A DNA stretch of 64,000 nt from Clostridia bacterium (GCA_017453205.1 JAFTKO010000012.1:70530-134529), one strand, 5' to 3'. Shown: positions 13,321 through 44,760, counted from the first letter of the stretch. The notes: generated by a model not told the origin, from the letters alone. Numbers and translations are program-made.

Positions 13321-13430
13321 GGGTTGTTGTCCTTTCTTGACGGTAGAGTTTTTTTCATTTCCGTCTTTACAAATCGTTTTAAATGCTGTATAATATATAA
13401 AGTATTGTCCTTTGGAAAGGAAATTTTAAC

Positions 13431-14006
13431 ATGTGTAATTTGAATGATAAGGCTTTGGAGGAGCGCTGTGTTTCCTCCGAATTGATTTATGACGGTAAGG
13501 TTGTGCATTTGTATGTCGACCGTATCGCACTGCCCAACGGGGCGCCGTCGATCCGTGAATATGTCCGCCACATCGGCGCGGTTGCGGTACTTCCGCTGAC
13601 TGCCGATGGCGAGGTCATTTGTGTGCGGCAGTATCGCTATGCGCACGGGTGTGTGATGACCGAGATTCCCGCGGGTAAGCTCGACAGCCGCGAGGAGGAT
13701 CACATAGAGGCCGCTCTGCGTGAACTGCGCGAGGAAACGGGTGCCCGTTGCGGAAAGCTGACCTACCTCGGGCTTTATCGCTCCACGCCCGCTATTTTGG
13801 ATGAGAAGATCGACCTTTATCTTGCCGAGGAGCTGACCTTTGGTGAGACCGATCCCGATGAAGACGAGTTTTTGGAGATCGTTCGTCTGCCACTGGAGAG
13901 CTTGGTCGATCAAGTGATGGCGGGGGAGATCACCGACGGAAAAACACAGGTCGCCGTTCTCAAAGCCGCGGAGATCCTGCGTCGCCGCACACATGCAAAA
14001 GACTGA
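13431..14006 (+). CDS. nudF: ADP-ribose pyrophosphatase (Nudix hydrolase)
   Basis: Nudix box GKLDSREEDHIEAALRELREETG. N-terminal YDGKVVHLYVDRIALPNG is typical of ADPRase. Confidence 0.78.
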   Translation: MCNLNDKALEERCVSSELIYDGKVVHLYVDRIALPNGAPSIREYVRHIGAVAVLPLTADGEVICVRQYRYAHGCVMTEIPAGKLDSREEDHIEAALRELREETGARCGKLTYLGLYRSTPAILDEKIDLYLAEELTFGETDPDEDEFLEIVRLPLESLVDQVMAGEITDGKTQVAVLKAAEILRRRTHAKD

Positions 14007-14021
14007 CAAAAGGAGCGCATC

Positions 14022-14525
14022 ATGACCAAACGAAATGTAATGATAACAATCAAGACCTCCCGATTGCTGATTGCGGAATGTCTGTTCGATGAGAACGCGG
14101 AATACAACGAGGAGTCCGTGAATCTTCACAACGGGGAATTACCCGAGTCGGAGGAGATGCTGGTAGAGGGGCGTCTGGTAACCAACGGCGAACGCGTGGA
14201 GCTGTTGTACGAGGAAAGCGAGATCAGTGGGATGCAAGGTTCGGTAACTACCATTGGGTTCGAGCGCAATACGCCGGGGTTGATCTCGATGAACCGCACG
14301 GGCACGGTGCTCACCTCACTCGTTTTTGAGGAGGGCAAGCGCCATTTCAGCGTTTATGATACCATTTTCAGTAGCTTTCAAGTGTGTGTCCGCACCTTGC
14401 ATGTCGAAAATAAACTGCTTACCGAGGGGAAGATCGACATTGAATATCTGATCGAGATCCATGGTGCGCAAGCCGAGCGTTGTAAAATGAATATCCTTGT
14501 TTGCGACGCGAAAGAGCTGTTTTAA
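14022..14525 (+). CDS. DUF1934 domain protein (YwiB-like beta-barrel)
   Basis: AAGGAG SD. Pattern VEGRLVTNGERVELLYEESEISGMQGSVTTIGFE resembles DUF1934 proteins; from memory. Confidence 0.62.
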   Translation: MTKRNVMITIKTSRLLIAECLFDENAEYNEESVNLHNGELPESEEMLVEGRLVTNGERVELLYEESEISGMQGSVTTIGFERNTPGLISMNRTGTVLTSLVFEEGKRHFSVYDTIFSSFQVCVRTLHVENKLLTEGKIDIEYLIEIHGAQAERCKMNILVCDAKELF

Positions 14526-15436
14526 CGCTTTTGTCGAAATGGGAGCTGAGCCAGTACGATCCCGCAAAAAACAAGCGCACAGCCTAAAACTTCGCGTCCC
14601 GACAGGCGGTTTCCCGAAATCAGCCAACCGCCGAGCGCGGCAAATACGCTTTCCAAGCTCATGGAGAGCGACGCGACCGTCGGTTCGGCAAATCTTTGAC
14701 CGATGATTTGCAACGTGTAGGCGATTCCGCTGGAAAAGATACCGAGATAAAGAATTTGCGGTGACGCGGCAAGCACATTTTGCCAAACGGCATCCTCAAA
14801 TATCAGTGAGAGGATTGCGGAAAGCACTCCGCAAACAACAAACTGCCAAAACGAGAGTGTCACACCTCCCACCGTGTCGACATAGCGGTCGATGACGAGA
14901 ATGTGGAGAGAAAAACTGACGGCGCAAAGAAAGATGAGCAGGTCGCCAAGGTAGATCCCTCCCACACCGTCCGAAAAACAGAGGAACCAAATACCGCCCA
15001 TGGCAAGCGCCACAGCACCCAGGAGCGGGAGCCCGATCCGCTTGCCGAGAAAGACCGAGATCAGCGGTACCAAAATGACATACAGCGCGGTCAAAAATCC
15101 CGCGCGCGCCTCGGCAGCAACACCGTCGGGATAATAGGAAATTCCAAATTGTTGCAGATTGACGCTGACCGTCAAAAGCAGACCGCAAAGTCCACCGCCG
15201 ATCAGCGTTTTTTTGCGTTGTTCGGTGTCTTTCGGAAAGAGTGGTCGGTGCGTTTTGCGGTTGCGGAATAAGATCAGTATGAAAAGAAAGAGCGCCCCGA
15301 TCAAGGCACGGAGGCTGTTGAACAACAGCGGCGGAACTTTGTCCGCGGCGTCACTCTGTGCCACAAACGCCAAGCCCCAAATCAATGAGGCAAGACAGAG
15401 GATCAAACTGCCTTTGAGGTTGCGAAATCGGTTCAT
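14522..15436 (-). CDS. DMT-superfamily (EamA) transporter
   Basis: 304 aa, about 10 TM segments, two EamA-like halves. Confidence 0.8.
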   Translation of the reverse strand: MNRFRNLKGSLILCLASLIWGLAFVAQSDAADKVPPLLFNSLRALIGALFLFILILFRNRKTHRPLFPKDTEQRKKTLIGGGLCGLLLTVSVNLQQFGISYYPDGVAAEARAGFLTALYVILVPLISVFLGKRIGLPLLGAVALAMGGIWFLCFSDGVGGIYLGDLLIFLCAVSFSLHILVIDRYVDTVGGVTLSFWQFVVCGVLSAILSLIFEDAVWQNVLAASPQILYLGIFSSGIAYTLQIIGQRFAEPTVASLSMSLESVFAALGGWLISGNRLSGREVLGCALVFCGIVLAQLPFRQKR

Positions 15437-15600
15437 GTGTCAAAATCCTTTGCAAATGTGTTGATATAAGTATACCATATTTTGCGGGCGATTGCAAGAC
15501 GGTTTGCCGTAGTTTTTCTTTGAAAAAACATTATTGTATTGACTTTTTCCGTTAATCATGATATAATTTCAAATAGAAATCATGCAAAGGATTTGTGCAA

Positions 15601-16590
15601 ATGAAAAAATGTTCTGTTATCGTTCCGCTTTATAAGGGCAAGGAGTATATCGAAGCGTGTATTGCCGGTATTGTAGCGCAAACTTACACCGATTGGGAAT
15701 TGATCTTGATGGATGACGGTTCTCCGGATGATACCTATGATTTTGTAGCGAATGTGATCAGCCGATATCCGAATTGCGATATGCAGCTGTTCCGAAGGGA
15801 AAACCGCGGGGTTGCCGAAACGAGAAATGAGTGCATCACACTTGCAAGCGGAGAATATATCGCTTTTATGGATCAAGATGATATCCTTGCACCGGACTAT
15901 CTCGAACGCCTCATGGGGGCTACGAAAGACGGGGAGCTTGATATCGTGCTTTGCGGCTATAAACGCCAACGAGATGACGGAAAAGTGTTGTTAAATGTGA
16001 CGCTCGTCAATGATACGTGGTCTAAATACCGTGTTACCGCACCTTGGGCAAGAGTTTATAAAAAATCATTTTTGCAGAAAAATAACCTCAAATATTTGAC
16101 CACGCCCTGTGGCGAGGATATTTATTTAACGCTCCGTGCCTATGCCCTAACCAATAGAATCGCGGTGGTCGAGGATTACGCGGGGTATATTTGGCGCTAT
16201 AATGCATCCTCGGTCTCCAATACCAAGCAAAGGTCGGTTATGATTGCTGATGCCGCTTGTGAGACCTTTGAAAAAATTATGGCATCCCTTCCTAAAACGC
16301 ACTTCTGCAAAGCAGAGGATGAGGAATATTTCTTTATCCGTTCCTGCATTTTCTACCTCTTATTTTCATCTCATTCCGAAAATTCCTCGCAGGTGGAATA
16401 CGCTTACAACCGTTATTTTTCTTTCTTGGAAACGTATTTTCCCAACTATATCAAGAACAAACAGATCAGCCTTTTTCGTCCGCGCAGTGAGAGCTTTTCG
16501 GTCCGGTGTGCGGTGTGGGGCTTTATCACGCTCAAAAAAATAGGGCTTGCCAAACCTTTTGCCAAGCTTTGGAGCAAGTTGGCAAAATAA
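15601..16590 (+). CDS. glycosyltransferase family 2
   Basis: MKKCSVIVPLYKGKEYIEACIAGIVAQTYTDWELILMDDGSPDDT and FMDQDD (DxD). ATG 15601 or 15595. Promoter-like TTGACT-17-TATAAT upstream. Confidence 0.82.
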   Translation: MKKCSVIVPLYKGKEYIEACIAGIVAQTYTDWELILMDDGSPDDTYDFVANVISRYPNCDMQLFRRENRGVAETRNECITLASGEYIAFMDQDDILAPDYLERLMGATKDGELDIVLCGYKRQRDDGKVLLNVTLVNDTWSKYRVTAPWARVYKKSFLQKNNLKYLTTPCGEDIYLTLRAYALTNRIAVVEDYAGYIWRYNASSVSNTKQRSVMIADAACETFEKIMASLPKTHFCKAEDEEYFFIRSCIFYLLFSSHSENSSQVEYAYNRYFSFLETYFPNYIKNKQISLFRPRSESFSVRCAVWGFITLKKIGLAKPFAKLWSKLAK

Positions 16591-16596
16591 AACTGT

Positions 16597-16636
16597 AAAA
16601 AAGACAGGTGATTGTTGATCTTCTGTCTTTTTTTTC
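16597..16636 (+). terminator. rho-independent terminator after GT2
   Basis: AAAAAAGACAG...CTGTCTTTTTTTTT. Confidence 0.6.
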
Positions 16637-16761
16637 GAGTTTTCATCGCTTTTTATACAAATTTTGTGTTTTCTCAAATATTGTTCACAAAAAAGCCTTG
16701 CAGGGGCTTTCTTTTTATGCTATACTGATAATGAAGTACGCGAAAGGGGAGGAGAACTTAT

Positions 16762-18261
16762 TTGAAACAGAAAGACTTGACCGAGCGAGAGCAACGCCGC
16801 CGCACGATATTGTGGAGTGTGTTGTTTGGTGTCATCTTTGTTTTGGGTGTGGCGATGGCAGTCGTTTGCGGATGGTATCGTGTGACCTACAATTTGGAAT
16901 TTAAAGAGTTGCTCTACACGTTGGCATCTCCGCTCAAGGGAACAGGGGAAAGCACCATATCGCTGATCTTGCGCTCCTGCTTGCCTGTTGTGTTGGTGTT
17001 CGCGGCACTCTATATCGGGGGTGCGGTCTTACTTTGGAAAAAACGCGAGACTTGGCGTTACGCACGGCGTATCGGTGCGGTGTTTTGTGTGGCGGTGCTG
17101 TTGGGTGCTTCCGTGTTTTCGGTGTTCGCTTTGCGGTTGCCCGCGTATATCAAAGTGCTTAACGAAAAAACAACTGTTTATGAGGACTACTATGTCGATC
17201 CCGCAACGGTGAGTATTACTGCCGATGGCGAGATGAAAAATCTCATCTATATTTATTTGGAAAGTATGGAAACCACCTATGCCTCGGTAGAGGAGGGCGG
17301 TGCACAGTACACCAATTATATGCCCGCCTTAACGGCGCTTGCCGAGGAGAACATTTCGTTTTCGGACAAATCGGACGGCCTTGGCGGCTTTCATACACCC
17401 CTTGGGACGGGGTGGACGATGAGCGCGTTGCTTGCCACCACATCGGGCATTCCGTTCTCGTTTCCGCTTGGGGAGAACGGGCACAACAAGATGAGCCAGC
17501 GGGAGTATTTTGCCTCGGGACTGACGACGTTGGGGGATATTCTTGCCGAAAAGGGCTACCGCCAGGAATTTTTGTGCGGTTCGGACAGCGCCTTTGCGGG
17601 GCGTGACACTTATTTTGAACAGCATGGGAATTATGAGGTCTTTGATCTGTACACCGCACGCGAGGAGTATTACATTGACGAGGACTACTATGTTTGGTGG
17701 GGCTTTGAAGATGAGATTTTGTATGACATTGCAAAAGATGAACTGACTGAGCTTGCGGCGGGGGAACGCCCCTTTAATTTTACGATGCTGACAGTAGACA
17801 CGCACCATGTGAATGGTTATGTTTGTGACCTTTGCGGCAATGCTTACGGCAATAAATTGGCGAATGTGGTTTCTTGTGCGGACAAGCAGCTTGCCGATTT
17901 TATTGACTGGTGTACCGAGCAGGATTTTTACGAGGACACGGTCATCATCATTACGGGAGATCACCCGCGTATGGACACGACCTTGGTTGCCGATACCGAT
18001 TACTACGACCGTACCATTTACAACTGTTTTATCAACGCGGTTCCCACACCTGCGGGCGCGACTACCGAGCGTGTGTTTACCAGCTTTGATCTTTTTCCAA
18101 CCACGCTCGCGGCAATGGGCTTTACCATCGAGGGTGACCGATTGGGGCTTGGTGTGAATATGTTCTCAGATCAGCAAACGCTTGCCGAAAAATTGGGGTA
18201 TGAGTATCTTGAGACCGAGATCAATAAGTTTTCGGATTATTACATTCGAGAGTTTTCGTGA
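16762..18261 (+). CDS. LTA-synthase / phosphoglycerol-transferase family (sulfatase-fold) membrane protein
   Basis: TTG start with GGGGAGGAG SD. Three N-terminal TM segments, then a sulfatase-like domain (FNFTMLTVDTHH, IIITGDHPRMD). Confidence 0.8.
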   Translation: MKQKDLTEREQRRRTILWSVLFGVIFVLGVAMAVVCGWYRVTYNLEFKELLYTLASPLKGTGESTISLILRSCLPVVLVFAALYIGGAVLLWKKRETWRYARRIGAVFCVAVLLGASVFSVFALRLPAYIKVLNEKTTVYEDYYVDPATVSITADGEMKNLIYIYLESMETTYASVEEGGAQYTNYMPALTALAEENISFSDKSDGLGGFHTPLGTGWTMSALLATTSGIPFSFPLGENGHNKMSQREYFASGLTTLGDILAEKGYRQEFLCGSDSAFAGRDTYFEQHGNYEVFDLYTAREEYYIDEDYYVWWGFEDEILYDIAKDELTELAAGERPFNFTMLTVDTHHVNGYVCDLCGNAYGNKLANVVSCADKQLADFIDWCTEQDFYEDTVIIITGDHPRMDTTLVADTDYYDRTIYNCFINAVPTPAGATTERVFTSFDLFPTTLAAMGFTIEGDRLGLGVNMFSDQQTLAEKLGYEYLETEINKFSDYYIREFS

Positions 18262-18308
18262 GCGATTCACAAAAGGGGCTATCTTTATCAAGCATCATCT
18301 GCTCCAAC

Positions 18309-18336
18309 AAAAAAACGCCCCTATAGGCGTTTTTTT
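18309..18336. terminator. bidirectional terminator
   Basis: AAAAAAACGCC-cctata-GGCGTTTTTTT. Confidence 0.6.
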
Positions 18337-18420
18337 GGTACGGATGTTCAGTCCGCCATCGGTCACTGAACAAAAAAAGTAGCAGTGACAGTCCCCGATT
18401 TTTGGGACCGGCACTGCCGG

Positions 18421-18494
18421 TGGAGCAGATGACGGGAATCGAACCCGCGTATTCGGCTTGGGAAGCGGACACTCTGCCATTGAGTTACATCTGC
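18421..18494 (-). tRNA. tRNA-Gly (anticodon CCC), CCA encoded
   Basis: Reverse strand: GCAGATG TA ACTC AATGGCA GAGT G TCCGC TTCCCAA GCCGA ATAC GCGGG TTCGATT CCCGT CATCTGC TCCA. Cloverleaf drawn by hand. Anticodon at 18460-18462. One C-C mismatch in the anticodon stem. Confidence 0.85.
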
Positions 18495-18596
18495 AAATAT
18501 ATAGCGTTCCCAAAGGAACATTAATATTATAATACAAAAATCGTTCCGTGTCAAGATGTCATCCGAAATTTTTCAAAAAAATCATTTCGACATTTT

Positions 18597-18649
18597 GCAG
18601 GAAAGCTTTTGGAGGAGGGGAGGAACGCTTTTTTGCAAAGGTTCCTCCC
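18597..18649 (-). repeat. intergenic hairpin-plus-tail repeat, copy 4
   Basis: Reverse strand: GGGAGGAACctttgcaaaaaagcGTTCCTCCC plus tail CTCCTCCAAAAGCTTTCCTGC(AAAAT). Confidence 0.5.
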
Positions 18650-18662
18650 GCAAAAAATATTT

Positions 18663-19442
18663 TTATTTTCCCTTCTGATTTTTCTTCCAAATGATATTCA
18701 GACCTTTGAGAAGCAGCGTTTCATCGAGTGTGACGTTGTGGTTGCAGTAGGGGCAGATGAGACCGCTCATGCCGCCTGTGGCAACAATGCTGGCGGGCTT
18801 ACGTCCCAGCGCGTCGGCAAAACGATCTAACAGACCGTCAATCGAGGCGGCTGTACCGTATACGATGCCTGCCTTCATGCTGTCCACTGTGTTGGACGCA
18901 ATGACGTTGCGGGGCGGTAAAATTTCAATGCGGGGCAAGAGCGCGGTTTCTTCGGCAAGTGCATTGAGCGAGATCCCCACGCCGGGGAGGATCGCGCCGC
19001 CAATGTATTTGCCGCCCGCGTCGACAACGGTCAGCGTGGTTGCGGTTCCCATGTCAATGATCACACAGGGCAGGGGATATTCCTCCTTTGCAGCTACTGC
19101 AGCGGCAACAAGATCAGAGGCGACCGTGCCGGGATCGTTGATGCAGATATGGAGTCCTGTTTTCACACCCGCTCCCACAATCAATGCATCCTTGCCTGTT
19201 ATCATACGCACGGCACGCACCAATACGTCGGTCATGGGCGGGACGACACAGGAAATGACCGCGCCCTCAAAAGCCTCGCAGTCGATTTTTTTAAGCTCAA
19301 ATATTTGTTTCATTTTTACCGCATAGCCGACATCGGTCTCCCTGCGGTCGGTCGGGATCCGAAAGATCGGCGCCGCCGTGTTGTTTTCATCAACACAGCC
19401 AAAGGTAATATGTGTGTTTCCGCAATCAATAGCGAGGATCAT
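18663..19442 (-). CDS. coaX: type III pantothenate kinase
   Basis: MILAIDCGNTHITFGC and IIDMGTATT are CoaX signatures. Confidence 0.9.
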   Translation of the reverse strand: MILAIDCGNTHITFGCVDENNTAAPIFRIPTDRRETDVGYAVKMKQIFELKKIDCEAFEGAVISCVVPPMTDVLVRAVRMITGKDALIVGAGVKTGLHICINDPGTVASDLVAAAVAAKEEYPLPCVIIDMGTATTLTVVDAGGKYIGGAILPGVGISLNALAEETALLPRIEILPPRNVIASNTVDSMKAGIVYGTAASIDGLLDRFADALGRKPASIVATGGMSGLICPYCNHNVTLDETLLLKGLNIIWKKNQKGK

Positions 19443-20916: not shown

Positions 20917-21654
20917 TTATTTCCCGAGTTCTTCCTCGTAAATGGTATCCTCGGAGAGTGTTTGGATGACTGCGGCGCTGAAATACTCCAACGGATCGAC
21001 CTGCAACCCCTTGACGGTCATTTCCATGTGCAGATGGGGTTCCTCGGCAATTTCATGGAGCGCGGTGTCGCCCACATAGCCCAAAAGTTGACCTTGCTGT
21101 ACCTCGGCACCCACCGTAATGTCGGCGGCAAGCTCGGCAGCGAGATTCTTGTAGACCGAGACACAGTCTCCCGCGTGTGTGAGAGCCACACACCAGCCCA
21201 TCATGGGATCCTCCCAAATCTGAGCAACGGTTCCCGCAGCAATGGCGCAAACACTTGCGTTCTCGGCGGTGGCAATATCAATGCCGTGGTGGACACGCCA
21301 TTCCTTTAAGGTCTGCGAAAAGACCTGTACGTCAACGCTGTGCTCCTTGATTAACTTGCCGGAAACGGGGAGTGCGAGCTCGGGGATCACACCGTCATTG
21401 ACGGTGGGTTGGGAGTCCTCACCGTCGTTGGTGTCGGGGGTGGTGTCGTTGGGCGTTTGGATCGCGTCGGTTACCACATTGTCGGTGGGATCTTCAACGG
21501 TTTGGTTCTTTTTGGCACGGTTGGTTGCCGCGGTGACTGCCAGGACAACTGCCAGCGCCAGCAGAATGACGACTGCCGACAGGTAGATGGCGCGGTTGAC
21601 GCGTACCTGCTTCATCTTTCTGAAGAATTGGGATTCTTTCCATTTTTTCCACAT
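20917..21654 (-). CDS. M23 family metallopeptidase, N-terminal membrane anchor
   Basis: TM segment AIYLSAVVILLALAVVLAV. Catalytic blocks HHGIDIA and HLHMEM. Confidence 0.85.
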   Translation of the reverse strand: MWKKWKESQFFRKMKQVRVNRAIYLSAVVILLALAVVLAVTAATNRAKKNQTVEDPTDNVVTDAIQTPNDTTPDTNDGEDSQPTVNDGVIPELALPVSGKLIKEHSVDVQVFSQTLKEWRVHHGIDIATAENASVCAIAAGTVAQIWEDPMMGWCVALTHAGDCVSVYKNLAAELAADITVGAEVQQGQLLGYVGDTALHEIAEEPHLHMEMTVKGLQVDPLEYFSAAVIQTLSEDTIYEEELGK

Positions 21655-21961
21655 AGTTCATGCTCCTTTGATTTTTCTGATATTGCGGCGGCAAGCGTCG
21701 TGGAAACGATTGCGCGTCTTGCTGTTTCTATTTTTGCCTGTTGCGGCTTCTTTATACAGCAAAAGCAAAAAAATCTTGAAAAAATTCCAATCTTGTGAAT
21801 TTACACATAAAATTCACGCAGATTTCAAAACTGCTTTTGATATTTTTGTCGTTATTCATAACCTATTCATATTTATATGTTAAAATAAACTCTGTATTGT
21901 GACCGGGCGACTTTTTGTCGTGCCGTGCGGAATTTACAGACGGAAAGGAAGTTCTGTTTCT

Positions 21962-23062
21962 ATGATAAAGATTGAACATCTTGTGAAAAATTACGGCTCA
22001 AACTGTGCCGTAGACGACATCAGCTTTGAGGTGGAGAGCGGCGAGATCGTCGGCTTTCTCGGTCCCAACGGCGCGGGAAAGAGTACAACAATGAATATCC
22101 TAACGGGATATTTGTCCTCAACCTCGGGCAAGGCATCGGTTGCGGGGATCGATATCCTGCGGGACCCGATCGGCGCGAAAAAGCAGATCGGATATTTGCC
22201 CGAGCAACCCCCGTTGTATCTTGATATGACGGTGGAGGAGTATCTCAGCTTTAACTTTAACCTCAAGCGTTGCAGGCTTGACCGCGCACAGCACATCGAG
22301 GAGGTTTGCGAAACAGTCAAGATCAAGGATGTGTATCACAAGGTGATCCGCACGCTCTCCAAGGGCTACCGCCAAAGAGTGGGCATTGCGCAAGCGCTGA
22401 TCGGCAAGCCCAAGGTTATTATTTTCGATGAGCCGACTGTCGGCTTGGATCCGAAGCAGATCATCGAGATCCGCAATCTGATCCGCAGTCTCGGAAAGGA
22501 TCACACCGTAATCCTTTCCACCCATATTTTACAGGAGGTCCAAGCGGTTTGCGACCGTATCATCATTATCAACAAGGGTAAGATCGTTGCAAACGAAAGG
22601 ACCGAGAACATCTCCAACATGGTGGAAAACAACCGCCGCTTCAATGTGAAGATTGCAGGACCGCAAAAGGATATTCTTGCTATGCTCAAAGGAATGTCCG
22701 GTATTGCATATGCCGAGGCATTGGCGGAGCGCGACGGCGATGCCTACACCTATATGATCGAAAGCGAGTACGGTGTGGATATTCGCAAAAAGCTGTTCTA
22801 TCAGCTTGCCGAACGCAACTGGCCTCTCGTTGGTATGGAGGCGCTTGGTATGAACCTTGAGGACATCTTTATCACGGTTGTGGACAAGTCCGAGGAATAC
22901 AAAGCCGTTGGAACCAATGTGCGTAACCGTATCAAGCGCCGTCCGCGCGGGCAGGAAAAGAGCGCGCTGGAGCGTGAGGTGGGTGCCTCGCTTTACGAGG
23001 ATGCACAGAGACAGAGAAGTGAGTCCTCGCTTTCCGCCGCGTCGGAAGACGATGACGAGTAA
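21962..23062 (+). CDS. ABC transporter ATP-binding protein (ABC-2/GldA-like) with a charged C-terminal tail
   Basis: Start moved to ATG 21962 (MIKIEHLVKNYG). Walker A GPNGAGKST, signature LSKGYRQR, Walker B IIFDEPTVGLD. Confidence 0.9.
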   Translation: MIKIEHLVKNYGSNCAVDDISFEVESGEIVGFLGPNGAGKSTTMNILTGYLSSTSGKASVAGIDILRDPIGAKKQIGYLPEQPPLYLDMTVEEYLSFNFNLKRCRLDRAQHIEEVCETVKIKDVYHKVIRTLSKGYRQRVGIAQALIGKPKVIIFDEPTVGLDPKQIIEIRNLIRSLGKDHTVILSTHILQEVQAVCDRIIIINKGKIVANERTENISNMVENNRRFNVKIAGPQKDILAMLKGMSGIAYAEALAERDGDAYTYMIESEYGVDIRKKLFYQLAERNWPLVGMEALGMNLEDIFITVVDKSEEYKAVGTNVRNRIKRRPRGQEKSALEREVGASLYEDAQRQRSESSLSAASEDDDE

Positions 23063-23091
23063 TTTACCGTAAGAAAGGAATTGAAACTGCT

Positions 23092-23862
23092 ATGTTTGCC
23101 ATCTATCGTAAGGAGATGCGCTCCTATTTTATCAACCCCATCGGATATGTTTATCTCGGCGTGTTTCTGGTGTTCTCGGCACTGCTGTGTTGCTACACTA
23201 CGCTGATTTCGGGAAGCTATGATACTTCCTCTTACTTCACTTTCCTTATCATGACTTTCATCATTCTTATCCCGATCTTGACGATGCGTCTGTTTGCGGA
23301 AGAAAGAAAGCTGCGCACCGAGCAGTTGCTTCTGACGGCTCCCGTGACCATCACGGGGATGGTGCTGGGCAAGTATTTTGCCGCTCTGACTGTATTTGTC
23401 AGTGGTGTGCTGATCTCCTGCATCAACTTTATTCCGCTTTACATCATCGGTAACGCCGAAAGAGCGGGGACCGAGTCAAATCTGAAGCACATCGGCCCCA
23501 TTACGGGCGAGATCGTGGGCAGTGTGATCGCCGTGATCCTTTTGGGTGCGGCGCTGATCGCGGTGGGAACGCTGATCTCGGCGCTTACCGAGAACCAACT
23601 CTCTGCCGCAGTCATCACCATCGGTGTCATTGCTGCCATGGTGCTCCTCAACGTCTTTAATATGCTGACCGACAGTGACGGACAGTACTTGATCGGTGTC
23701 TATGCCGTTCGTGCGGTCATTGACTGGGTATCGGTGCTCAGCCGTTTCTCGGCATTCAGCAACGGAATTTTTGATTATGCTGCGCTTCTGTATTACGTGT
23801 CGCTGGCATTTGTGTTCCTCTTCCTTACCGTCCGCGTGTACGAAAAGCGCCGTTGGGGTTGA
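23092..23862 (+). CDS. ABC-2 type permease (GldF-like)
   Basis: MFAIYRKEMRSYFINPIGYVYLGVFLVFSALL and 6 TM segments. Confidence 0.82.
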   Translation: MFAIYRKEMRSYFINPIGYVYLGVFLVFSALLCCYTTLISGSYDTSSYFTFLIMTFIILIPILTMRLFAEERKLRTEQLLLTAPVTITGMVLGKYFAALTVFVSGVLISCINFIPLYIIGNAERAGTESNLKHIGPITGEIVGSVIAVILLGAALIAVGTLISALTENQLSAAVITIGVIAAMVLLNVFNMLTDSDGQYLIGVYAVRAVIDWVSVLSRFSAFSNGIFDYAALLYYVSLAFVFLFLTVRVYEKRRWG

Positions 23863-23883
23863 TCTTCGGGAGGAACGAATTTT

Positions 23884-25428
23884 ATGAAAAAGCATTTTAT
23901 CCGAAACCGTAAGGTGCGTTACGGCGGCATTACCGTGATCTTAGCGATTTTGGTCGTCACGGTCACTGTGCTGTCCAACGCAGTCTTTGGCACATTGGCG
24001 GAACGCTATGGGTGGTACACCTCCATGACGGGCACGTACAGCTATGATGTGACCGAGGACTGCTATACGCTCCTTGGCGATATGTTTGCCTCGCTCAGTG
24101 CCGAGGGGCATACACCGAAAGCTGAGATCATCTTTTGCGATACGGAGGAAAATTTGACTGCGGAGAGCACACAGCTCTATCTCTACGAGACAGCGACCTC
24201 CCTTGCGGAACGCTATCCCGAAAACATTACCGTGCAATGCTATGACATTTGGACCAACCCCAACACGGTGCGCAATTATACTACCACGCTCAATCCCTTG
24301 ACGGGCGAGACTGTGGAGACCACCATCAAATCAACCAGTGTCATCATTATTGCCGAGAATTATCACCGCGTTTACAGCTTGGAAGAGTTCTACGTCTTTG
24401 AGGACGGCAATACCGAAAATCTGTGGGCGTACAACGGCGAAAAGAAGCTTGCCGCAGGCATTATGCACGCGGTGGATCCCGAGGAGCATGTTGTTTGCCT
24501 TACCAACAACCACGGTGAGATTTTTTATGATTATGAGCTCCTCTATCTTCTTGACGATGCGGGCTATACCGTTTCGTATATCGACCTGTACCGACAGGAG
24601 ATTCCCGAAAACTGCGATCTGATTATCAGCTACAACCCTAACACCGACCTTGTTGAGGATGAGCTCTCGGATGTTTCCGAGGTAGAGATCTTGGACGCAT
24701 TTTTGTCCAAAGAGGGCAACAGCTTTTGGGTGTTCCTCGAAAACGGTACGCCGGAGCTGCCCAATTTTGAAAAATACCTTGAGGGCTGGGGTGTGGATTT
24801 TGAATATCACACCTCGGGTGAGCGTTCCTACCGTTACATGGTGCAGGATTCCTCGCAATCGCTGACCTCCGATGGTTATACCATTTACGGGGAGGCGGTC
24901 AACGACGGGCATTCCGCAGAGCTGATGAGAGAGCTTGGCGGCAAGGTCGTGTTCAAGAATGCCACCGCAATGACCTCCGCACAAGGCTTTGTCAACAATG
25001 GCGACGGCAGCTTTACCAAGGATAGCCGTACCATGTACAGCCTGTATGAGGGCAGCGCCAACGCTGTCAGCTGGGCAAACGGCTCTCCCGTAGATACCGC
25101 GAATAATGCGATCCTCATGAGCTTGACCGAGCAAAGGAACGCTTCCGGTTCCTCTTATGTCGGTGTGATTGCTTCGGTTGATTTTTCTGCCGAGGACTTT
25201 TTACAGTCTGCCGTTTACGGGAATACCGATGTCCTGTTGCGCTCTTTCCGTAACGTAGGCAAGACCTATACCCCCGAGGGACTGACCATCAAACCCTTTG
25301 CATCTCAAGATATCAGTACCATCACCACACGGCAAATGCTGTTTTGGACCATCGGGCTTTCTGTCGCCCCCGCGCTGATCGTGAGCGCGGTCGCAGTCGT
25401 GATCTTGGTCAGACGCCGCCGCGCGTAA
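23884..25428 (+). CDS. GldG-family ABC auxiliary protein, copy 1
   Basis: GGGAGGA SD. TM anchors at both N- and C-termini around a large extracytoplasmic domain. Blocks are shared with copy 2 (IIFCDTEENL, YDIWTNPNTV, GYTVSYIDLYRQEIPENCDLII, AVYGNTDVLL). Confidence 0.7.
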   Translation: MKKHFIRNRKVRYGGITVILAILVVTVTVLSNAVFGTLAERYGWYTSMTGTYSYDVTEDCYTLLGDMFASLSAEGHTPKAEIIFCDTEENLTAESTQLYLYETATSLAERYPENITVQCYDIWTNPNTVRNYTTTLNPLTGETVETTIKSTSVIIIAENYHRVYSLEEFYVFEDGNTENLWAYNGEKKLAAGIMHAVDPEEHVVCLTNNHGEIFYDYELLYLLDDAGYTVSYIDLYRQEIPENCDLIISYNPNTDLVEDELSDVSEVEILDAFLSKEGNSFWVFLENGTPELPNFEKYLEGWGVDFEYHTSGERSYRYMVQDSSQSLTSDGYTIYGEAVNDGHSAELMRELGGKVVFKNATAMTSAQGFVNNGDGSFTKDSRTMYSLYEGSANAVSWANGSPVDTANNAILMSLTEQRNASGSSYVGVIASVDFSAEDFLQSAVYGNTDVLLRSFRNVGKTYTPEGLTIKPFASQDISTITTRQMLFWTIGLSVAPALIVSAVAVVILVRRRRA

Positions 25429-25449
25429 AGCGAGAAAGGAGTAACTGAA

Positions 25450-27132
25450 ATGAAAACGAACAACGGTTTCAACCGTAAAATTCGGTACGGTTCCGCCTCT
25501 CTCGGGATTGTCGCCGCGGTCATCGGCGTTGTGATTTTGATCAACGCCGTGGCAAGCTTGCTTTGCTCGAACAATCTTTGGTTTACCGACCTTACCACCG
25601 AGCCCATGTACGGGCTTACCGAACAGGGGAATGCCTTGCTCGGTTCGACCATTGACTCGGCAAATGCCACCCGTCCCGAGGACAAACCCGTAAAAGTAGA
25701 CATTATCTTTTGCGCGGATCCCGATATGCTGTACGGCAACGAGATGATGCGATATATTTACTATACCGCATTGCAAATGGAAAAGGCGTATTCCGATACC
25801 ATCCATGTCCAAACCGTTGACGTGTGGGACAATCCCTCGGCGGTCGACGCATACCGTACCAACTCCTACTCTTCCATTTATCAAACCAATGTCATTGTCG
25901 CCAGCGGTACCGAGTTCCGCGTGTATAACTACAAGGCATTTTATACGTACAGCTCGGATACCGACACCGAGCCGTGGGCATACAACGCAGAAAAGACCTT
26001 TATCAAAGGGATCATTGCCGTGACGCGTGCCGAGGCGCCGATCTGCGCCATTACGGTCGGTCACGGAGAGCCCTTTCATTACAACGAAACCACCCAAACG
26101 TGGGAGACCGAGTACACCGAGCTTCTTAAGGTCATTGAGGGCGCCGGTTATGATATTGATTATGTGAATTTGACAGAGCGGGATCTGCCCGAAAACTGCC
26201 GATTGGTTGTCACCTTTGATCCGCAGACCGATTTCGTTTCCGGATTTCTCAGCGGCGGTGTTTCCGAGCTTTCCAAGCTGGAAAAGCATTTGAATAATGC
26301 CTACTCCTATATGGTTTTTGTCGACGCGGACACCCCCAAGCTTACCAACCTTGAGGAGTTCCTTGAGGAATGGGGAATTGCGTTTGAGCGCTATGACAAG
26401 AGCGCAACCTATGAGGTCATTGACGTTGACAGCTCGTTGAACATCGACGGTACGACCATCATCGGTCAGTACGCACAGGATGGACTGGGCGGTAGCTTGA
26501 CAACTGAAATGCGAAAAACAGGCACTCCCAAGGTCGTGTTTGGCAATGCACTGTCCATTACCTACTCTCCCACCTATGAGCAACAATATAAGCTCGCCGA
26601 TGAGGAGGCAGGTACGGGAGCTTACACCTACGGTTATTATTACAACAATAACTGGTCGCGCGATATTTTCGATGTGTTTACCGCAAGCAACACCGCTGTG
26701 GCTTATGCAAAGGAGAACGGTGTACGCGTGACCGAGGAGGACGGCGATCTTTGGAAAGATACGTCGGGAAATTACAAGCTGATGACCATTACACGTCAGA
26801 CGCGTACCGTCAGCGAGGGTAAGGGTTATACCAATGTGTATGACAATACCTATGTTTGTGCCGTCGGTTCCACCGATTTTGCAAGCAACAAGGCGTTGTC
26901 CTCCAATGCTTACGGGAATACCGACATCCTTCTTTCCGCGTTGCGTACCATCGGACGTGAAATCGTTCCCGTGGGCTTTGAGCCGATCTCTCTTTACGAT
27001 GACGAGATGAGCACCGATTATTATACCGAGGGCGGAAATATCGTTACCACGGTGGTGCTGGTCGCGCTCCCCACACTGATCCTGGCGGGCGTGGGTATGG
27101 TCATCTTGATCAAGAGACGGGTACGCAGATAA
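25450..27132 (+). CDS. GldG-family ABC auxiliary protein, copy 2
   Basis: AAAGGAG SD. WFTDLTTEPMYGLTEQG matches the GldG N-terminal RfDLTxxxxYtLS pattern. TM anchors at both ends. Confidence 0.75.
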   Translation: MKTNNGFNRKIRYGSASLGIVAAVIGVVILINAVASLLCSNNLWFTDLTTEPMYGLTEQGNALLGSTIDSANATRPEDKPVKVDIIFCADPDMLYGNEMMRYIYYTALQMEKAYSDTIHVQTVDVWDNPSAVDAYRTNSYSSIYQTNVIVASGTEFRVYNYKAFYTYSSDTDTEPWAYNAEKTFIKGIIAVTRAEAPICAITVGHGEPFHYNETTQTWETEYTELLKVIEGAGYDIDYVNLTERDLPENCRLVVTFDPQTDFVSGFLSGGVSELSKLEKHLNNAYSYMVFVDADTPKLTNLEEFLEEWGIAFERYDKSATYEVIDVDSSLNIDGTTIIGQYAQDGLGGSLTTEMRKTGTPKVVFGNALSITYSPTYEQQYKLADEEAGTGAYTYGYYYNNNWSRDIFDVFTASNTAVAYAKENGVRVTEEDGDLWKDTSGNYKLMTITRQTRTVSEGKGYTNVYDNTYVCAVGSTDFASNKALSSNAYGNTDILLSALRTIGREIVPVGFEPISLYDDEMSTDYYTEGGNIVTTVVLVALPTLILAGVGMVILIKRRVRR

Positions 27133-27168
27133 CATATTCCGTAAGAAAGGGAATTACAGGCAGAACAC

Positions 27169-30084
27169 ATGAGAATTGAACAAACTGTTGTAAATGTCAT
27201 ATTCGACGCCGCAAAGGGGACGGTTTCGGTCTCCAGCCGCGAGGCGGTGAGCGGTCAGCCGTTCGGTGCCTTGCCGCAACCTTCGCGGGCGGGCTATGCA
27301 TTCCTCGGTTGGTATCATAACGGGACGCTTGTTACGGCGGACACCGTGCTTGACTCCGAGGAGGATATCCGTTTGGTGGCACAATGGGAAAAGCGCAAGG
27401 GCGGCAAAAAGGCGTCCATCCTCAAACGGCAAAAAATTGCCGTGGCAGTGCTTGCCGCACTGACCGTTGTGCTCATCGCAGCGCTTTTGGTGGTCAACCA
27501 TGTGGTAACGATCTATTCGTTCCATGATGTGTACTACAAGGACGGTGTCGAGTATTCCGACAAATACTATATCAAAAAGAAAGACGGTTCTTACGCGCTT
27601 TTCGATAAGGACGGCAATCTGATGGAAAAGAACGAGGACGGCTATTATATTGCCGCCGGCAGCGGAAACCAGTACAGCATTGACGCCGAAACGGGAGAGA
27701 AGTCGCTTTATGCCGTGGTCGATTACGACTCGGCGGGCGGGGAAACACTCGGCTTTAACGACCGTATCATGATTTTTCCGCAGATCACGCAAAAAAACAC
27801 CTATTCGATTGAGGTTACCAATGAATACGGGACCTACAAATTTTACCGTGATGCCAACGGAGACGTGCACATTGAGGGCACGGAAGACTCTTTGGTTGCT
27901 TACGACCAAACCCTGTTTGCAAGCCTTTGCGTCAGTTGCGGGTACACGCTGACCATGCAAAAGCTGGATCTGACCTCCGCTGAGTCGGTTGCACCGCGCT
28001 TGCCCGACGGCAGTGTGGACTATGCGGCATACGGTCTCGGTCCGGACGATTCTCCCGCTGTTTACACCGTGACCAAGGCAATCTATGCCGAGGACGGTAC
28101 CTGCACCGCTGACGAGAACACCAAGTACACGGTCAAGGTCGGTGATGCCATCCTTTCGGGGGCCGGTTATTATGTGCAATTGGACGGACGTGACGCGGTT
28201 TATATCGTCAGCTCCTCCATCGCCGACACGGTGCTTCAGCCTGTCGAGGCGCTTGTCACCCCCGCCATTGTCTACCCCATGTCGATGTCGACCTACGCCA
28301 TGGTGCAAAACTTCCTTTTGGGTGAGCTTGATTTTGGAGCGTTGCTGGATCAGAATAAGGATGAGATCGACACCGATGATATCAATCTTACTCCCATTGT
28401 ATCCTTTACCTATTTGGATCTTGAAAACCGCACCAATACCATTCACACCTCCAGTCCCTATATCAGCGGCGACGAGTTGAATTTGATGGGCGGCGCCTAT
28501 GCACTGAACGACGATAATGTCTCTACGGTGTTGAGCCTTTTCTACGAGATGGAATTTGTTGCCTGCAAAAAGCTTGGCTTTGACAGGGCAGATTTGAAGG
28601 AATATGGACTGGACGGCAATATTTACTACCTGTCCTTTGGTTCTCCCGTGCTGGATGAAAACAACTATCTCTCGGGATATGTCGAAAATTCAATTTTGAT
28701 CAATCCCAATAAGACCGAGAACGGGACCTACTATGTGGCTTCCACGCTGTACGATATGATCGTTGAGGTGGATCAGTATTATCTGTCCTTCCTTGAGTGG
28801 GAGGAGAGCGATTGGTATGATCAGTATTTCTTCCAAAACAACATCTCCTATGTTTCGGATCTGAAGCTGCAGATCCGCGACAGCGAGACGGGCGAGCTCA
28901 AGACCTTTACCTTTACGATGGATAACTCGGCTTCCTATATGTACTATGAGTACGAGGAAGGCAAGATGAAGTTGGTCGATTTGAGTACCGGCAGCATCAG
29001 CCGCAGTGAAAGCGGCGAGGTGACCTACACCGATAAAAACGGTGTGAAGTATATTGCCAAGGCACTGGATTTCAGTGGCGGCGGGTATTATATTAAGATC
29101 GAACACGCGTCAAAGGGCACGGTGACTTACGAGCCTTACTACAAGTATTTGATCACCATCGACCGTGACGGTAACAAAAATCTGCAAGTAGTTCGCAAGG
29201 GTGAGGATGGCAAGGAAAGCAAGACCAATTATCCGCTCACCGAAAACAGCGCTACCGTGCGGAGCTATAAGTTGATCTACCGTGATGCAAACGGCACGGA
29301 GTTTGACGTGATCGGTACCTACACTGTAAACGGCGAAAGCTATAACGATTATTACCGCTTCAATTACTGGCAAGAGGTTTCGGGTAAGGATGACAATGGG
29401 AACAGCACTTATGTTTGGGAGCGTGTGACGCCCTCCAATACTGCCAGTTATTTGCTCCTGCGCGATGTCGACGGCAAGCTTTATCAAGTCAGTGTGGGTT
29501 CAAGCAATATGGTCGTATCCTGTGTGGAATACGGCGGTGTGTTGGATTATACCATTGTTCACACTTACACCACCGATAAGGGAACCGAGAAAACCGAGAC
29601 CATTACAGCCACCGACAACTTCCGCAAGCTGTACAGTGATCTTTTGTGGTTCTCAATCGAGGGAGATGTGGACGAGGAAGAGTTTAAAAAGAACATTGGA
29701 CTTTTGACAGGAACCGAAATGACCATGGACGAATATATTGCCCTTGGTGACGATGTTTGTCAAGCGATCTTTACCTACCATGTTTCGGATATGGCGGTGT
29801 TGATGAATTTGATCACCGGTGTCGAGAATGCCAATGACAAGGCGCTTGAACAGAAATACTGGACCGAGAACAACGAAAAGGATGTTGTGGTTCGTTTCTA
29901 CCGTTATTCCGAGCGCAAGACCATGATCACCATTGAGGTGATTGAGGAATACGACGAAAACGGAAATCCCGTTTCCGATCCCACCAAGGCGGCAGGACGC
30001 TTCTATGTCCTTTCCACCTACCTCGATCAACTTCTTGGCGATGCCGAAAGACTCCTCGCAAAAGAACGCGTGGAGCAAGACTGA
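27169..30084 (+). CDS. 971-aa membrane-anchored protein: N-terminal Listeria-Bacteroides (Flg_new) repeat, TM segment, large DUF4340-like ectodomain
   Basis: VIFDAAKGTVSVSSREAVSGQPFGALPQPSRAGYAFLGWYHNGT...LVAQWEK fits the Flg_new repeat. It is followed by KRKGGKKASILKRQK plus TM IAVAVLAALTVVLIAALLVV. The DUF4340 call rests mainly on operon position after GldG (from memory). Weak SD. Confidence 0.6.
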   Translation: MRIEQTVVNVIFDAAKGTVSVSSREAVSGQPFGALPQPSRAGYAFLGWYHNGTLVTADTVLDSEEDIRLVAQWEKRKGGKKASILKRQKIAVAVLAALTVVLIAALLVVNHVVTIYSFHDVYYKDGVEYSDKYYIKKKDGSYALFDKDGNLMEKNEDGYYIAAGSGNQYSIDAETGEKSLYAVVDYDSAGGETLGFNDRIMIFPQITQKNTYSIEVTNEYGTYKFYRDANGDVHIEGTEDSLVAYDQTLFASLCVSCGYTLTMQKLDLTSAESVAPRLPDGSVDYAAYGLGPDDSPAVYTVTKAIYAEDGTCTADENTKYTVKVGDAILSGAGYYVQLDGRDAVYIVSSSIADTVLQPVEALVTPAIVYPMSMSTYAMVQNFLLGELDFGALLDQNKDEIDTDDINLTPIVSFTYLDLENRTNTIHTSSPYISGDELNLMGGAYALNDDNVSTVLSLFYEMEFVACKKLGFDRADLKEYGLDGNIYYLSFGSPVLDENNYLSGYVENSILINPNKTENGTYYVASTLYDMIVEVDQYYLSFLEWEESDWYDQYFFQNNISYVSDLKLQIRDSETGELKTFTFTMDNSASYMYYEYEEGKMKLVDLSTGSISRSESGEVTYTDKNGVKYIAKALDFSGGGYYIKIEHASKGTVTYEPYYKYLITIDRDGNKNLQVVRKGEDGKESKTNYPLTENSATVRSYKLIYRDANGTEFDVIGTYTVNGESYNDYYRFNYWQEVSGKDDNGNSTYVWERVTPSNTASYLLLRDVDGKLYQVSVGSSNMVVSCVEYGGVLDYTIVHTYTTDKGTEKTETITATDNFRKLYSDLLWFSIEGDVDEEEFKKNIGLLTGTEMTMDEYIALGDDVCQAIFTYHVSDMAVLMNLITGVENANDKALEQKYWTENNEKDVVVRFYRYSERKTMITIEVIEEYDENGNPVSDPTKAAGRFYVLSTYLDQLLGDAERLLAKERVEQD

Positions 30085-30094
30085 TAAAACAAAA

Positions 30095-30122
30095 ACGACC
30101 TCCCGCTTGTGTGGGAGGTCGT
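30095..30122 (+). terminator. hairpin after the ABC/GldG operon
   Basis: ACGACCTCCC-gcttgtgt-GGGAGGTCGT; only a weak T tract follows (AATTT). Confidence 0.5.
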
Positions 30123-30215
30123 AATTTAATTGCCCCAACCATATAATAATTTGTTTTTGGAATGTTGGGAAAAAAGTTGGTATCATATTATTAAAATATT
30201 TGTGAGGTGTTGGTA

Positions 30216-30407
30216 ATGGCGACAAACAAAATACAAACAGGTATCAGATTTGAACCCGAGTTGCTTTATAAGATCGCATATGTTGCAAAGCAAAATAAAA
30301 GATCTCTGAATGCGCAACTTGAATATTTGGCGTTGATGTGCGTTAAAGAGTACGAAAAAGAAAACGGCGAGATCACAATTGAGGAAAATATTTTATACAG
30401 CAAATAA
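30216..30407 (+). CDS. small Arc/MetJ-type ribbon-helix-helix DNA-binding protein (63 aa)
   Basis: ATG 30216 (GAGGTG SD). MATNKIQTGIRFEPELLYKIAYVAKQNKRSLNAQLEYLALMCVKEYE. The beta-strand plus RSLNAxxxxL helix pattern is typical of Arc-like RHH proteins. Confidence 0.6.
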   Translation: MATNKIQTGIRFEPELLYKIAYVAKQNKRSLNAQLEYLALMCVKEYEKENGEITIEENILYSK

Positions 30408-30480
30408 AAGGCAAAACAATGGAAAACGGAACCGTGAAATATTACGGCTCCGTTTTTTGATGACTATAAAAAAATTTAAA

Positions 30481-44469: not shown

Positions 44470-44760
44470 AATTATAAAAATAGGCTGTGACAGGAACAAA
44501 GTTCGGTCGGATATTACAGAGAGTTGTCGGTCGCTGCGAGACAATATACGAGACGGAATATAACTCATCCTTGAGCTTCCAATCCAAAGGCGTAAGCTGA
44601 GTAGAATTGGACGGGTTCTCCCGTTATTGAGAAGCCATATTGTTAGATGTGGCATAAGTGGGTGGAGTCACCAAGCAGAGTGGTACCGCGGAGAGCATAA
44701 ATCTTCGTCTCTTTTATGCAAAAGTATGATACTGTTGCGTAAAAGGGGCTTTTTGTTTTT
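44470..44760 (+). promoter_or_regulatory. T-box riboswitch leader, leucine specifier (CUC)
   Basis: Stem I AGAGAG...GCTGCGAG elements (44518-44540). Specifier-loop candidate AACTCA with CTC at 44564-44566. T-box sequence AGAGTGGTACCGCGG at 44677-44691. Terminator stem 44709-44747 followed by GCTTTTTGTTTTT. Confidence 0.85.

Follow-up and report, generated by a model that had tools for sequence, protein, structure and literature searches.

A five-gene ABC/GldG/GldG/DUF4340 operon conserved in gut Clostridia: a candidate envelope ABC machine beside a SpoIIQ-like peptidase gene

A 64,000-nucleotide (nt) stretch of DNA from an uncultured Clostridia bacterium (GCA_017453205.1, JAFTKO010000012.1:70530-134529; the whole stretch is referred to as the window) contains, at positions 21962 to 30084, five genes that encode an ATP-binding cassette (ABC) ATPase, an ABC-2 permease, two GldG-like proteins and a 971-amino acid (aa) DUF4340 protein. 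There is little doubt about the identity of the genes and the architecture of the locus, which probably represents one transcription unit for a multi-subunit ABC machine of the cell envelope. The same arrangement is found in 60+ loci of other genomes, which is far beyond chance. The locus is well defined and widespread in gut Clostridia, and it represents a solid lead that so far holds no surprise of principle.

RESULTS

Layout and transcription of the operon

A reading of the window made from the sequence alone (the sequence-only reading) had placed five genes on one strand at 21962-30084, separated by short gaps and followed by a hairpin at 30095. The open reading frames (ORFs) were recovered exactly as given, and the features of the unit are the following:

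21962..23062, + strand: ABC ATPase, GldA-like, 366 aa (ABC_tran, E 5e-32)
23092..23862, + strand: ABC-2 permease, GldF-like, 256 aa (GldF is the best NCBIfam model; about 6 transmembrane (TM) segments)
23884..25428, + strand: GldG-like protein 1 (GldG1), 514 aa (ABC_transp_aux, E 2.8e-7, below the gathering score; AlphaFold2 (AF2) fold)
25450..27132, + strand: GldG-like protein 2 (GldG2), 560 aa (paralog of protein 1; ABC_transp_aux, E 7.8e-7)
27169..30084, + strand: giant DUF4340 protein, 971 aa (DUF4340, 42.5 bits; AF2 model)
27169..27393, + strand: N-terminal InlB-type B-repeat (Flg_new) of the giant protein, aa 1-75 (Flg_new, 33 bits; fold match to 2y5p)
30095..30122, no strand: G+C-rich hairpin that closes the operon

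The spacers between the genes measure 29, 21, 21 and 36 nt, and each contains an AGGA/GGAGG-type ribosome-binding site. The hairpin is present as proposed, with a 12-bp stem that includes 8 G-C pairs, and its tail on the + strand is AATTTAATTG, a poor T-run; most orthologous loci likewise have a strong hairpin (-20 to -39 kcal/mol) behind the last gene. A conserved promoter (see below), the ribosome-binding sites, the terminal hairpin and the fixed gene order jointly support the view that the five genes form a single transcription unit. No Rfam family matched the 5' leader of the operon, so that no riboswitch or leader RNA family was seen there. The G+C content of the operon region (0.49-0.52) is the same as in the rest of the window, which is ordinary chromosome with lepA, asd, leu/ilv genes behind a T-box, P-type ATPases and glycosyltransferases.

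Conservation and history of the five-gene order

A scan of GTDB species representatives yielded 65 loci, the ORFs of which were searched with the six window proteins. All of these loci belong to metagenome-assembled genomes (MAGs) from the ruminant or human gut that are assigned to Clostridia, Eubacteriales, Oscillospiraceae, Ruminococcus sp. or Eubacterium sp. CAG:180. The order ABC, ABC-2, GldG1-type, GldG2-type and DUF4340 is present in every locus that is long enough, corresponding to about 60 species-level MAGs. A search of a collection clustered at 90% retrieved 323 relatives of the giant protein (E <= 1e-3), which are 780-1040 aa long and nearly all composed of Flg_new and DUF4340. A divergent paralogous subfamily (L060-L063) possesses the whole module with a DUF4340 protein of 730-756 aa and with the same promoter motif, and in one MAG (RGIG3898) copies of the main and the paralogous module coexist (L017 and L062).

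Further distant relatives of 590-1170 aa were retrieved by a HMMER search of 1.84 billion representatives. Two of these, L075 and L076 (roughly 36% identity), could be located on contigs and have the same five genes, the products of which measure 353-361, 240-248, 514-516, 575-578 and 980-1014 aa. The sequence-only reading had considered the GldG duplication and the enlarged last protein as unusual. Both traits are indeed present; however, they are not specific to the window, but fixed in about 60 species-level genomes. Since the same five genes recur in L075 and L076 at such low identity, the doubled GldG and the giant DUF4340 protein are ancient, fixed traits of a sizeable Clostridia family. 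The sequence comparisons also indicate that the B-repeat and the link to an M23 peptidase gene are later additions in the subfamily of the window: L075 and L076 have neither a B-repeat nor an M23 neighbor. In both, the divergent neighbor is instead a gene for S-adenosylhomocysteine hydrolase (1-531 in L075 and 1510-3016 in L076), a conserved divergent pair other than that with M23.

ATPase and permease

Among the NCBIfam models, the ATPase scores best with GldA (TIGR03522; 331.7 bits over the full length, below the equivalog cut-off of 402.6), followed by DrrA (217 bits) and a lantibiotic-protection ATPase (182 bits). The best model for the permease is GldF (TIGR03518; E 1.6e-34 and 119.9 bits over the full length, below the equivalog cut-off of 288.5). 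The permease has about six hydrophobic segments according to hydropathy, and there is no large extracytoplasmic loop. The proposed ATPase and six-TM ABC-2 permease are thus borne out by the ABC_tran match, by the number of hydrophobic segments and by GldF as the best model. A check with the ABC2_membrane hidden Markov models gave a mixed result, since four of these Pfam families match, but the best of them, ABC2_membrane_3, reaches 30.7 bits for a gathering score of 31.6. Similarly, the assignment of the locus to the GldA/F/G type stands in the sense of being GldAFG-like, but the curated equivalog thresholds for GldA and GldF are missed and that for GldG is without any match.

The ATPase carries a family-specific C-terminal extension of about 60 aa (22880-23062) that is composed of a basic RxRxxRR stretch, an amphipathic helix with the motif E(R/K)E(L/V)GxxL(Y/F)xDAxxQR and an acidic end. 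This tail is shared by 50+ orthologs as well as by L075 and L076. As these two distant relatives have no B-repeat, the tail does not depend on that domain.

The paired GldG-like proteins

GldG1 and GldG2 can be aligned from end to end (32% identity, E 1e-80), and hydropathy identifies in both a hydrophobic helix flanked by K/R at either end. The suggestion of two tandem GldG-type paralogs that share sequence blocks and have a TM segment at each end is therefore correct. Both match Pfam ABC_transp_aux (PF09822), with 30.5 bits (E 2.8e-7) for GldG1 and 29.0 bits (E 7.8e-7) for GldG2. The check by this profile hence succeeded in terms of E-values (~3-8e-7), but not in terms of the gathering score of 34.7, and the matches span only about 115 of the 288 profile positions. 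At E <= 0.01 neither protein matches any NCBIfam family, hence there is no curated GldG match, and a PDB sequence search with the GldG-like profiles gave no match. Some orthologs have a precomputed PF09822 match or are named 'Gldg family protein' by NCBI.

The AF2 model of GldG1 (pLDDT 84.9) has terminal helices at aa 9-41 and 482-513, in agreement with a GldG-type topology. Its top fold match in the PDB is chain B of the yeast oligosaccharyltransferase (OST) structure 6c26 (E 2e-9, probability 1.0, 270 aligned columns), followed by NDST1 and then by class-I glutamine-amidotransferase (GATase1) folds. Chain B of 6C26 corresponds to Wbp1. The Wbp1 subunit of OST carries a GIFT domain, the name of which derives from GldG and IFT52; this domain was proposed to bind sugar or lipid-linked oligosaccharide, and the GIFT domain of Wbp1 was linked to the recruitment of the latter (PMC7226087). 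The model consequently predicts a GIFT-type fold for GldG1, i.e., a GATase1-like alpha/beta domain. In summary, the GldG-like assignment is supported by fold, topology and context and not by curated sequence thresholds. The order of GldG1-type followed by GldG2-type is held in all loci, including the distant ones. The GldG2 gene also contains an antisense ORF of 644 aa (25201-27135, - strand) that is longer than the gene itself; it is low in complexity, rich in G/R/H and without homology support, and is a spurious ORF that may be a trap for gene callers.

The giant DUF4340 protein

The last protein of the operon was proposed to be a membrane-anchored, DUF4340-like protein of 971 aa. This was confirmed by a score of 42.5 bits for Pfam DUF4340 (PF14238; gathering score 25) and by the presence of only one TM helix (about aa 87-112). 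Analyzed by segment, aa 206-372 alone score 33.3 bits, and aa 373-555 produce a weak match of 16.2 bits. The N-terminus matches Flg_new with 33 bits (gathering score 27). In the AF2 model (pLDDT 86.3), a beta domain (aa 1-75) is followed by the TM helix and by some 850 residues that form an ectodomain of about five alpha/beta and all-beta domains. According to the alignment, the difference in length between 971 aa and about 830 aa is due to an all-beta insert at aa ~625-770 that is variable. A PDB sequence search with the DUF4340 profile gave no match. Internal repeats were considered and discarded, as the alignment of sub-alignments with hhalign was not significant (best pair D2-D3, probability 19%).

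The fold of the N-terminal domain is that of the InlB B-repeat 2y5p (probability 1.0, root-mean-square deviation 2.3 A, TMt 0.81). This domain is strongly conserved across the subfamily of the window. InlB-type B-repeats are normally found in extracellular or surface proteins. Here, the K/R-rich stretch KRKGGKKASILKRQK separates the B-repeat from the sole TM helix, and charges are absent on the far side of this helix; by the positive-inside rule, the B-repeat is therefore predicted to be located in the cytoplasm.

The operon promoter

A set of 45 distinct intergenic regions between the M23 and ABC genes, mostly of 280-310 nt, was aligned. Besides two ribosome-binding sites, the conserved blocks correspond to two promoters, one for each direction. 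In the window, the elements that precede the operon are the following:

21855..21886, + strand: operon promoter with TTCAT (21855), TTCATA (21866) and extended -10 (no other + strand blocks of the intergenic regions are as well conserved)
21813..21828, + strand: upstream phased direct repeats TTCAC (21813) and TTCAA (21824) (TTCAY spacing statistics)

The consensus of the operon promoter is (A/G)TTCA(T/C)-N6-(G/A)TTCATAT-N4-(A/G)TGnTAnAAT on the + strand. It consists of two direct repeats, 11 nt apart, that end 9 nt before an extended -10 (in the window, TG at 21878-21879 and TAAAAT at 21881-21886), and there is no usable -35. A second, TTCAC-type repeat pair is located 42-43 nt further upstream. 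Over the 45 regions, the most frequent TTCAY spacings are 11 nt (43 cases) and 42-43 nt (28 cases), and such sites occur 133 times on the + strand vs 36 times on the - strand. The composite motif was found 47 times in 1.17 Mb of related loci, with only one clear match outside the intergenic regions of the operon. Loci that lack M23 have the motif as well, as do L075 and L076.

In pho-box-like promoters, sites for OmpR/PhoB-type activators replace the -35. As the phased repeats stand in the place of the -35, the operon promoter looks like one that is activated by a response regulator of the OmpR/PhoB type. Several other assignments were examined and dropped. The half-site TCATATTT resembles a sigma-E -35, but a sigma-E or sigma-K promoter was rejected on three grounds: a CATA-type -10 at a suitable distance is missing, 11 nt separate the two repeats, and CATA varies in its 'A'. 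Spo0A and WalR boxes were rejected on sequence. PhoP and HssR were considered as regulators, since the half-sites would fit TT(A/T/C)ACA and GTTCATATT, but neither was adopted; no pst genes were detected in the related loci examined for a Pho regulon. In the locus L043, from a MAG of an uncultured Ruminococcus sp., the operon is directly followed by genes for a histidine kinase and a response regulator of the OmpR family (12677-14673), and this two-component system is a possible clue to the regulator of the TTCAY repeats.

The divergent SpoIIQ-like M23 gene

The divergent neighbor of the operon encodes an M23 peptidase, as the sequence-only reading had stated:

20917..21654, - strand: M23 (LytM) metallopeptidase, SpoIIQ-like, 245 aa (Peptidase_M23, E 1.5e-20)
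21729..21757, - strand: promoter of the M23 gene, sigma-F-type (phylogenetic footprint in the 45 orthologous intergenic regions)

The protein has a TM helix at its N-terminus, followed by a LytM domain. SpoIIQ is the best match in NCBIfam, over the full length and with 75.5 bits, for a cut-off of 250 in a model that was apparently built on Bacilli. Its top sequence match in the PDB is SpoIIQ of B. subtilis (3tuf_B, E 2.7e-9). The zinc ligands HxxxD and HxH are invariant in 47 orthologs, and no other protein of the block is as well conserved (65-83% identity). In the sources, M23 orthologs are referred to only as 'M23 family metallopeptidase'. The M23 gene adjoins the operon in about 46 of the 49 loci that include enough upstream DNA, and in a reciprocal analysis starting from the M23 orthologs the operon was again adjacent, whereas the outer flanks differed every time. 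This persistence of the adjacency argues for a functional coupling of M23 and operon within the subfamily of the window.

The promoter of the M23 gene consists of a -35 GTATA (21757..21753), a 14-nt spacer and the -10 GGCAAAAATA (21738..21729), and its consensus in 45 loci is TG(T/C)ATAA-N13-GG(C/A)AAAAATA(A/G). This is a perfect fit, as a sequence match, to the B. subtilis sigma-F consensus GTATA / GGNAANAMTR (PMC3416734), and spoIIQ of C. difficile belongs to the sigma-F regulon (PMC3789822). The promoter would imply that this uncultured lineage sporulates and that the M23 protein is its SpoIIQ equivalent. The earlier suggestion that the M23 gene hints at a role in the envelope or in a surface polymer can be refined, as the similarity to SpoIIQ and the sigma-F-type promoter point to the biology of peptidoglycan or the forespore and not to a generic surface polymer.

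No clear sporulation gene was found in the window. An Amidase_3 protein (7406-8116, + strand) has the spore-cortex amidase CwlD as best NCBIfam model (81 bits vs a cut-off of 221), a weak hint of sporulation. In the locus L003, the block (12653-18932) is situated about 1.4 kb from the rpmH-rnpA-yidD-yidC-jag-trmE cluster, i.e., in the region of the replication origin. In B. subtilis, proximity to the origin is important for genes of the early forespore.

Other features of the window

Just past the operon hairpin lies an ORF of 63 aa (30216-30407, + strand) with a weak match to Arc-like ribbon-helix-helix proteins (E 0.019), a promoter-like site at 30157-30186 and a terminator-like hairpin at 30423-30456. 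The metagenome contig L005, which carries an identical operon, stops at the operon hairpin, which suggests strain variation from there on. The T-box leader (44478-44715, + strand, 109.7 bits) is located upstream of a leuA-like gene at 44817, and a tRNA-Gly(CCC) gene was identified at 18421-18494 (- strand). At 3.7 kb upstream of the operon, a membrane-anchored sulfatase-family protein (16762-18261, + strand) that resembles phosphoglycerol transferases/LtaS is encoded near GT2 and GT8 genes. These neighbors are not conserved in the related loci and thus provide no information on the substrate of the operon.

DISCUSSION

A model for the machine

The data available can be integrated into the following model. 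A dimer of the permease and two ATPases would form the motor, which may be flanked by the GldG1/GldG2 pair as a heteromeric, outward-facing cradle, and the DUF4340 protein would extend as an elongated stalk into the wall. In the subfamily of the window, the cytoplasmic B-repeat may be in contact with the ATPase or with the charged tail of the latter. The hydrolysis of ATP would drive the extraction or export of a glycan-bearing envelope component, which would then be handed outward. An OmpR/PhoB-type response regulator bound to the phased TTCAY repeats would switch the operon on, and the output of the machine is probably coordinated with peptidoglycan remodeling by way of its genetic coupling to the SpoIIQ-like M23 gene with the sigma-F-type promoter. 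ABC-2 permeases are exporters of glycan-bearing envelope molecules. For this reason, and since the GIFT fold is kin to Wbp1/OST48 of OST, the handling of glycans is favored over other functions. Independent support for a complex of the ABC core with GldG and DUF4340 proteins comes from SAR11 bacteria, for which AlphaFold-multimer predicts an ATPase, a permease, a GldG-type and a DUF4340 protein to be part of one transporter complex (bioRxiv 10.64898/2025.12.11.693642). As an explanation of the locus as a whole, the envelope ABC machine proposed here has about an even chance of being correct, whereas glycoconjugate export as its mechanism is a tentative idea that we would sooner expect to be wrong than right.

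A number of observations weigh against this model. The ATPase and permease score below the NCBIfam cut-offs for GldA and GldF, both GldG-like proteins remain below the Pfam gathering score, and in the fold search only the N-terminal domain of the giant protein, but not its DUF4340 portion, has a credible structural relative in the PDB. The binding of sugar by GIFT domains is itself only a proposal (PMC7226087). No gene for a glycosyltransferase or for polymer synthesis is conserved beside the block in the related loci, so that nothing in cis names the substrate, and a two-component system adjoins the operon in only 1 of about 75 loci. M23 is absent beside the paralogous subfamily, L018 and the distant relatives; for this reason, and because the two units have different types of promoter, it is not an obligatory partner. 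Furthermore, every member of the family is known from MAG sequence alone.

Alternative explanations

The way in which the operon appears to be regulated is also compatible with a stress-induced efflux or detoxification pump that would export a small and toxic molecule, for instance an antibiotic, a heme-like compound or an antimicrobial peptide. Induction would then occur by a two-component system as in the Bce-type or HssRS-HrtAB modules of Firmicutes, and the accessory proteins would merely stabilize or sense. The operon promoter indeed has direct repeats of the response regulator type instead of a -35, and the consensus GTTCATATT of the proximal half-site would equal the half-site of HssR. 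The next-best models for the ATPase are DrrA and the lantibiotic-protection ATPase. HssR and HitR have been documented to control an ABC efflux operon through direct repeats (PMC3968170). We consider such a pump to be unlikely, however, because the nearest family models are GldA and GldF and not resistance pumps, because accessory proteins with a total of about 2,045 extracytoplasmic residues, encoded in an order that has been strictly maintained through deep divergence, are unlike known efflux pumps, and because the two-component system found at a single locus is not conserved. In addition, the coupling to M23 would be left unexplained.

This coupling is central to another explanation, namely, a mechanotransmission or trans-envelope complex with the SpoIIQ-like protein that would be comparable to FtsEX-EnvC/PcsB or SpoIIIA-SpoIIQ. 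ATP-driven shifts of the GldG/DUF4340 ectodomains might position or activate the M23 protein, or might dock with it across the intermembrane space between forespore and mother cell during engulfment. The divergent adjacency in almost all loci despite differing outer flanks, the invariant zinc site, the conserved and perfect sigma-F-type promoter and the unmatched conservation of the M23 protein within the block are in line with this explanation. On the other hand, the operon promoter is sigma-A-like with activator sites and is not of the sigma-E, -K, -F or -G type, the permease is a six-TM ABC-2 protein and not of the FtsX/MacB type with its large ectodomain, and the window has only the weak CwlD-like match in terms of sporulation genes. 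Moreover, the paralogous subfamily and L018 possess the module but lack M23 beside it, and so do the distant relatives, the divergent neighbor of which is AdoHcyase. A complex of this kind is thus rather improbable. Its more specific form, in which the ABC/GldG/GldG/DUF4340 machine and the M23 protein would be an ATP-powered bridge or peptidoglycan-remodeling device across the envelope between forespore and mother cell, with the DUF4340 stalk docking on or controlling M23, is a long shot, although, if true, it would provide the first assigned cellular role for the widespread orphan ABC-2/GldG/DUF4340 module. That the five genes are mere neighbors or decaying remnants without a joint function is hardly conceivable. 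It is true that co-transcription is deduced from sequence and that several family matches lie under curated thresholds, but none of the reading frames is disrupted, 60+ genomes have the genes in one fixed order at identities down to about 36%, short gaps with ribosome-binding sites are combined with a single conserved promoter and a terminal hairpin, and the AF2 models are confident.

Significance

Returning to the envelope ABC machine, the locus belongs to a widely distributed 'unknome' transport system, the ABC-2/GldG/DUF4340 module, that is conserved in SAR11 and essential in at least one bacterium. The sequence-only reading had described this module as being without an assigned substrate in Firmicutes, which agrees with the literature searched: no functional study of it outside gliding was retrieved. 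There is no functional study on DUF4340 in that literature, and the work on GldG is confined to gliding in Bacteroidota. In it, the module outside gliding is represented only by the SAR11 prediction and by a report that a DUF4340 domain protein is essential in Verrucomicrobium spinosum (PMC12283558).

The newly described points are the B-repeat predicted to be cytoplasmic, the charged tail of the ATPase, the TTCAY promoter and the SpoIIQ-like M23 with its sigma-F-type promoter. The Clostridia variant offers handles for future work in the form of a fixed heteromeric GldG pair and of a stalk protein with a cytoplasmic domain that could report on ATPase coupling. The sharply defined regulatory site predicts a dedicated response regulator and hence an inducing signal, and the conserved genetic partner, a SpoIIQ-like peptidoglycan peptidase, has a recognizable biology. 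If the M23 link is functional, an orphan class of transporters would be tied to cell wall remodeling or sporulation in abundant gut anaerobes.

Comparison with known systems

The GldA/GldF/GldG system of Flavobacterium johnsoniae and other Bacteroidota shares with the locus an ATPase, an ABC-2 permease and a GldG-type protein with a TM segment at each end. It differs in that the host here belongs to the Clostridia, GldG is duplicated, a giant DUF4340 protein is part of the operon, the regulation is different and, in the subfamily of the window, there is a link to M23. The survey of the window detected no gld or type IX secretion system (T9SS) genes, and the related loci are all from Clostridia, Eubacteriales or Oscillospiraceae and not from Bacteroidota. 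The locus is homologous to GldAFG and to the ABC-2/GldG/DUF4340 modules and would work in a similar way. As judged from the failed equivalog tests for GldA, GldF and GldG and from a host outside the Bacteroidota, it is not a member of the gliding system.

Wbp1/OST48 is the best structural match of GldG1, and both are ectodomains with a C-terminal TM helix; in Wbp1/OST48 this is located beside a membrane enzyme that handles lipid-linked glycans. However, the identity is 12%, there is no match at the sequence level, the partner is STT3 and not an ABC transporter, and an N-terminal TM helix is missing. The M23 neighbor and SpoIIQ have in common an N-terminal TM helix with a LytM domain, the best NCBIfam and PDB matches, a sigma-F-type promoter and an intact zinc site, which is also present in SpoIIQ of C. 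difficile. The differences are a score of 75 bits for a cut-off of 250 and a gene that, in the window, is next to the ABC operon instead of spoIIID/spoIID. In mechanotransmission of the FtsEX type (type VII), an ABC system is likewise tied genetically to a LytM/M23 protein, but the permease here is an ABC-2 protein of about six TM segments without a large ectodomain and not a four-TM FtsX/MacB protein, and the link to the hydrolase is specific to the subfamily.

The closest parallel in composition is the ABC-2/GldG (COG3225, PF09822)/DUF4340 (PF14238) module of the SAR11 OG1814 cluster, in which the same four protein types occur together. The four orthologous groups of that module imply a single GldG, whereas two GldG paralogs are present here, combined with a 971-aa DUF4340 protein that has extra beta-rich domains, a cytoplasmic B-repeat predicted for the subfamily of the window and a charged tail on the ATPase.

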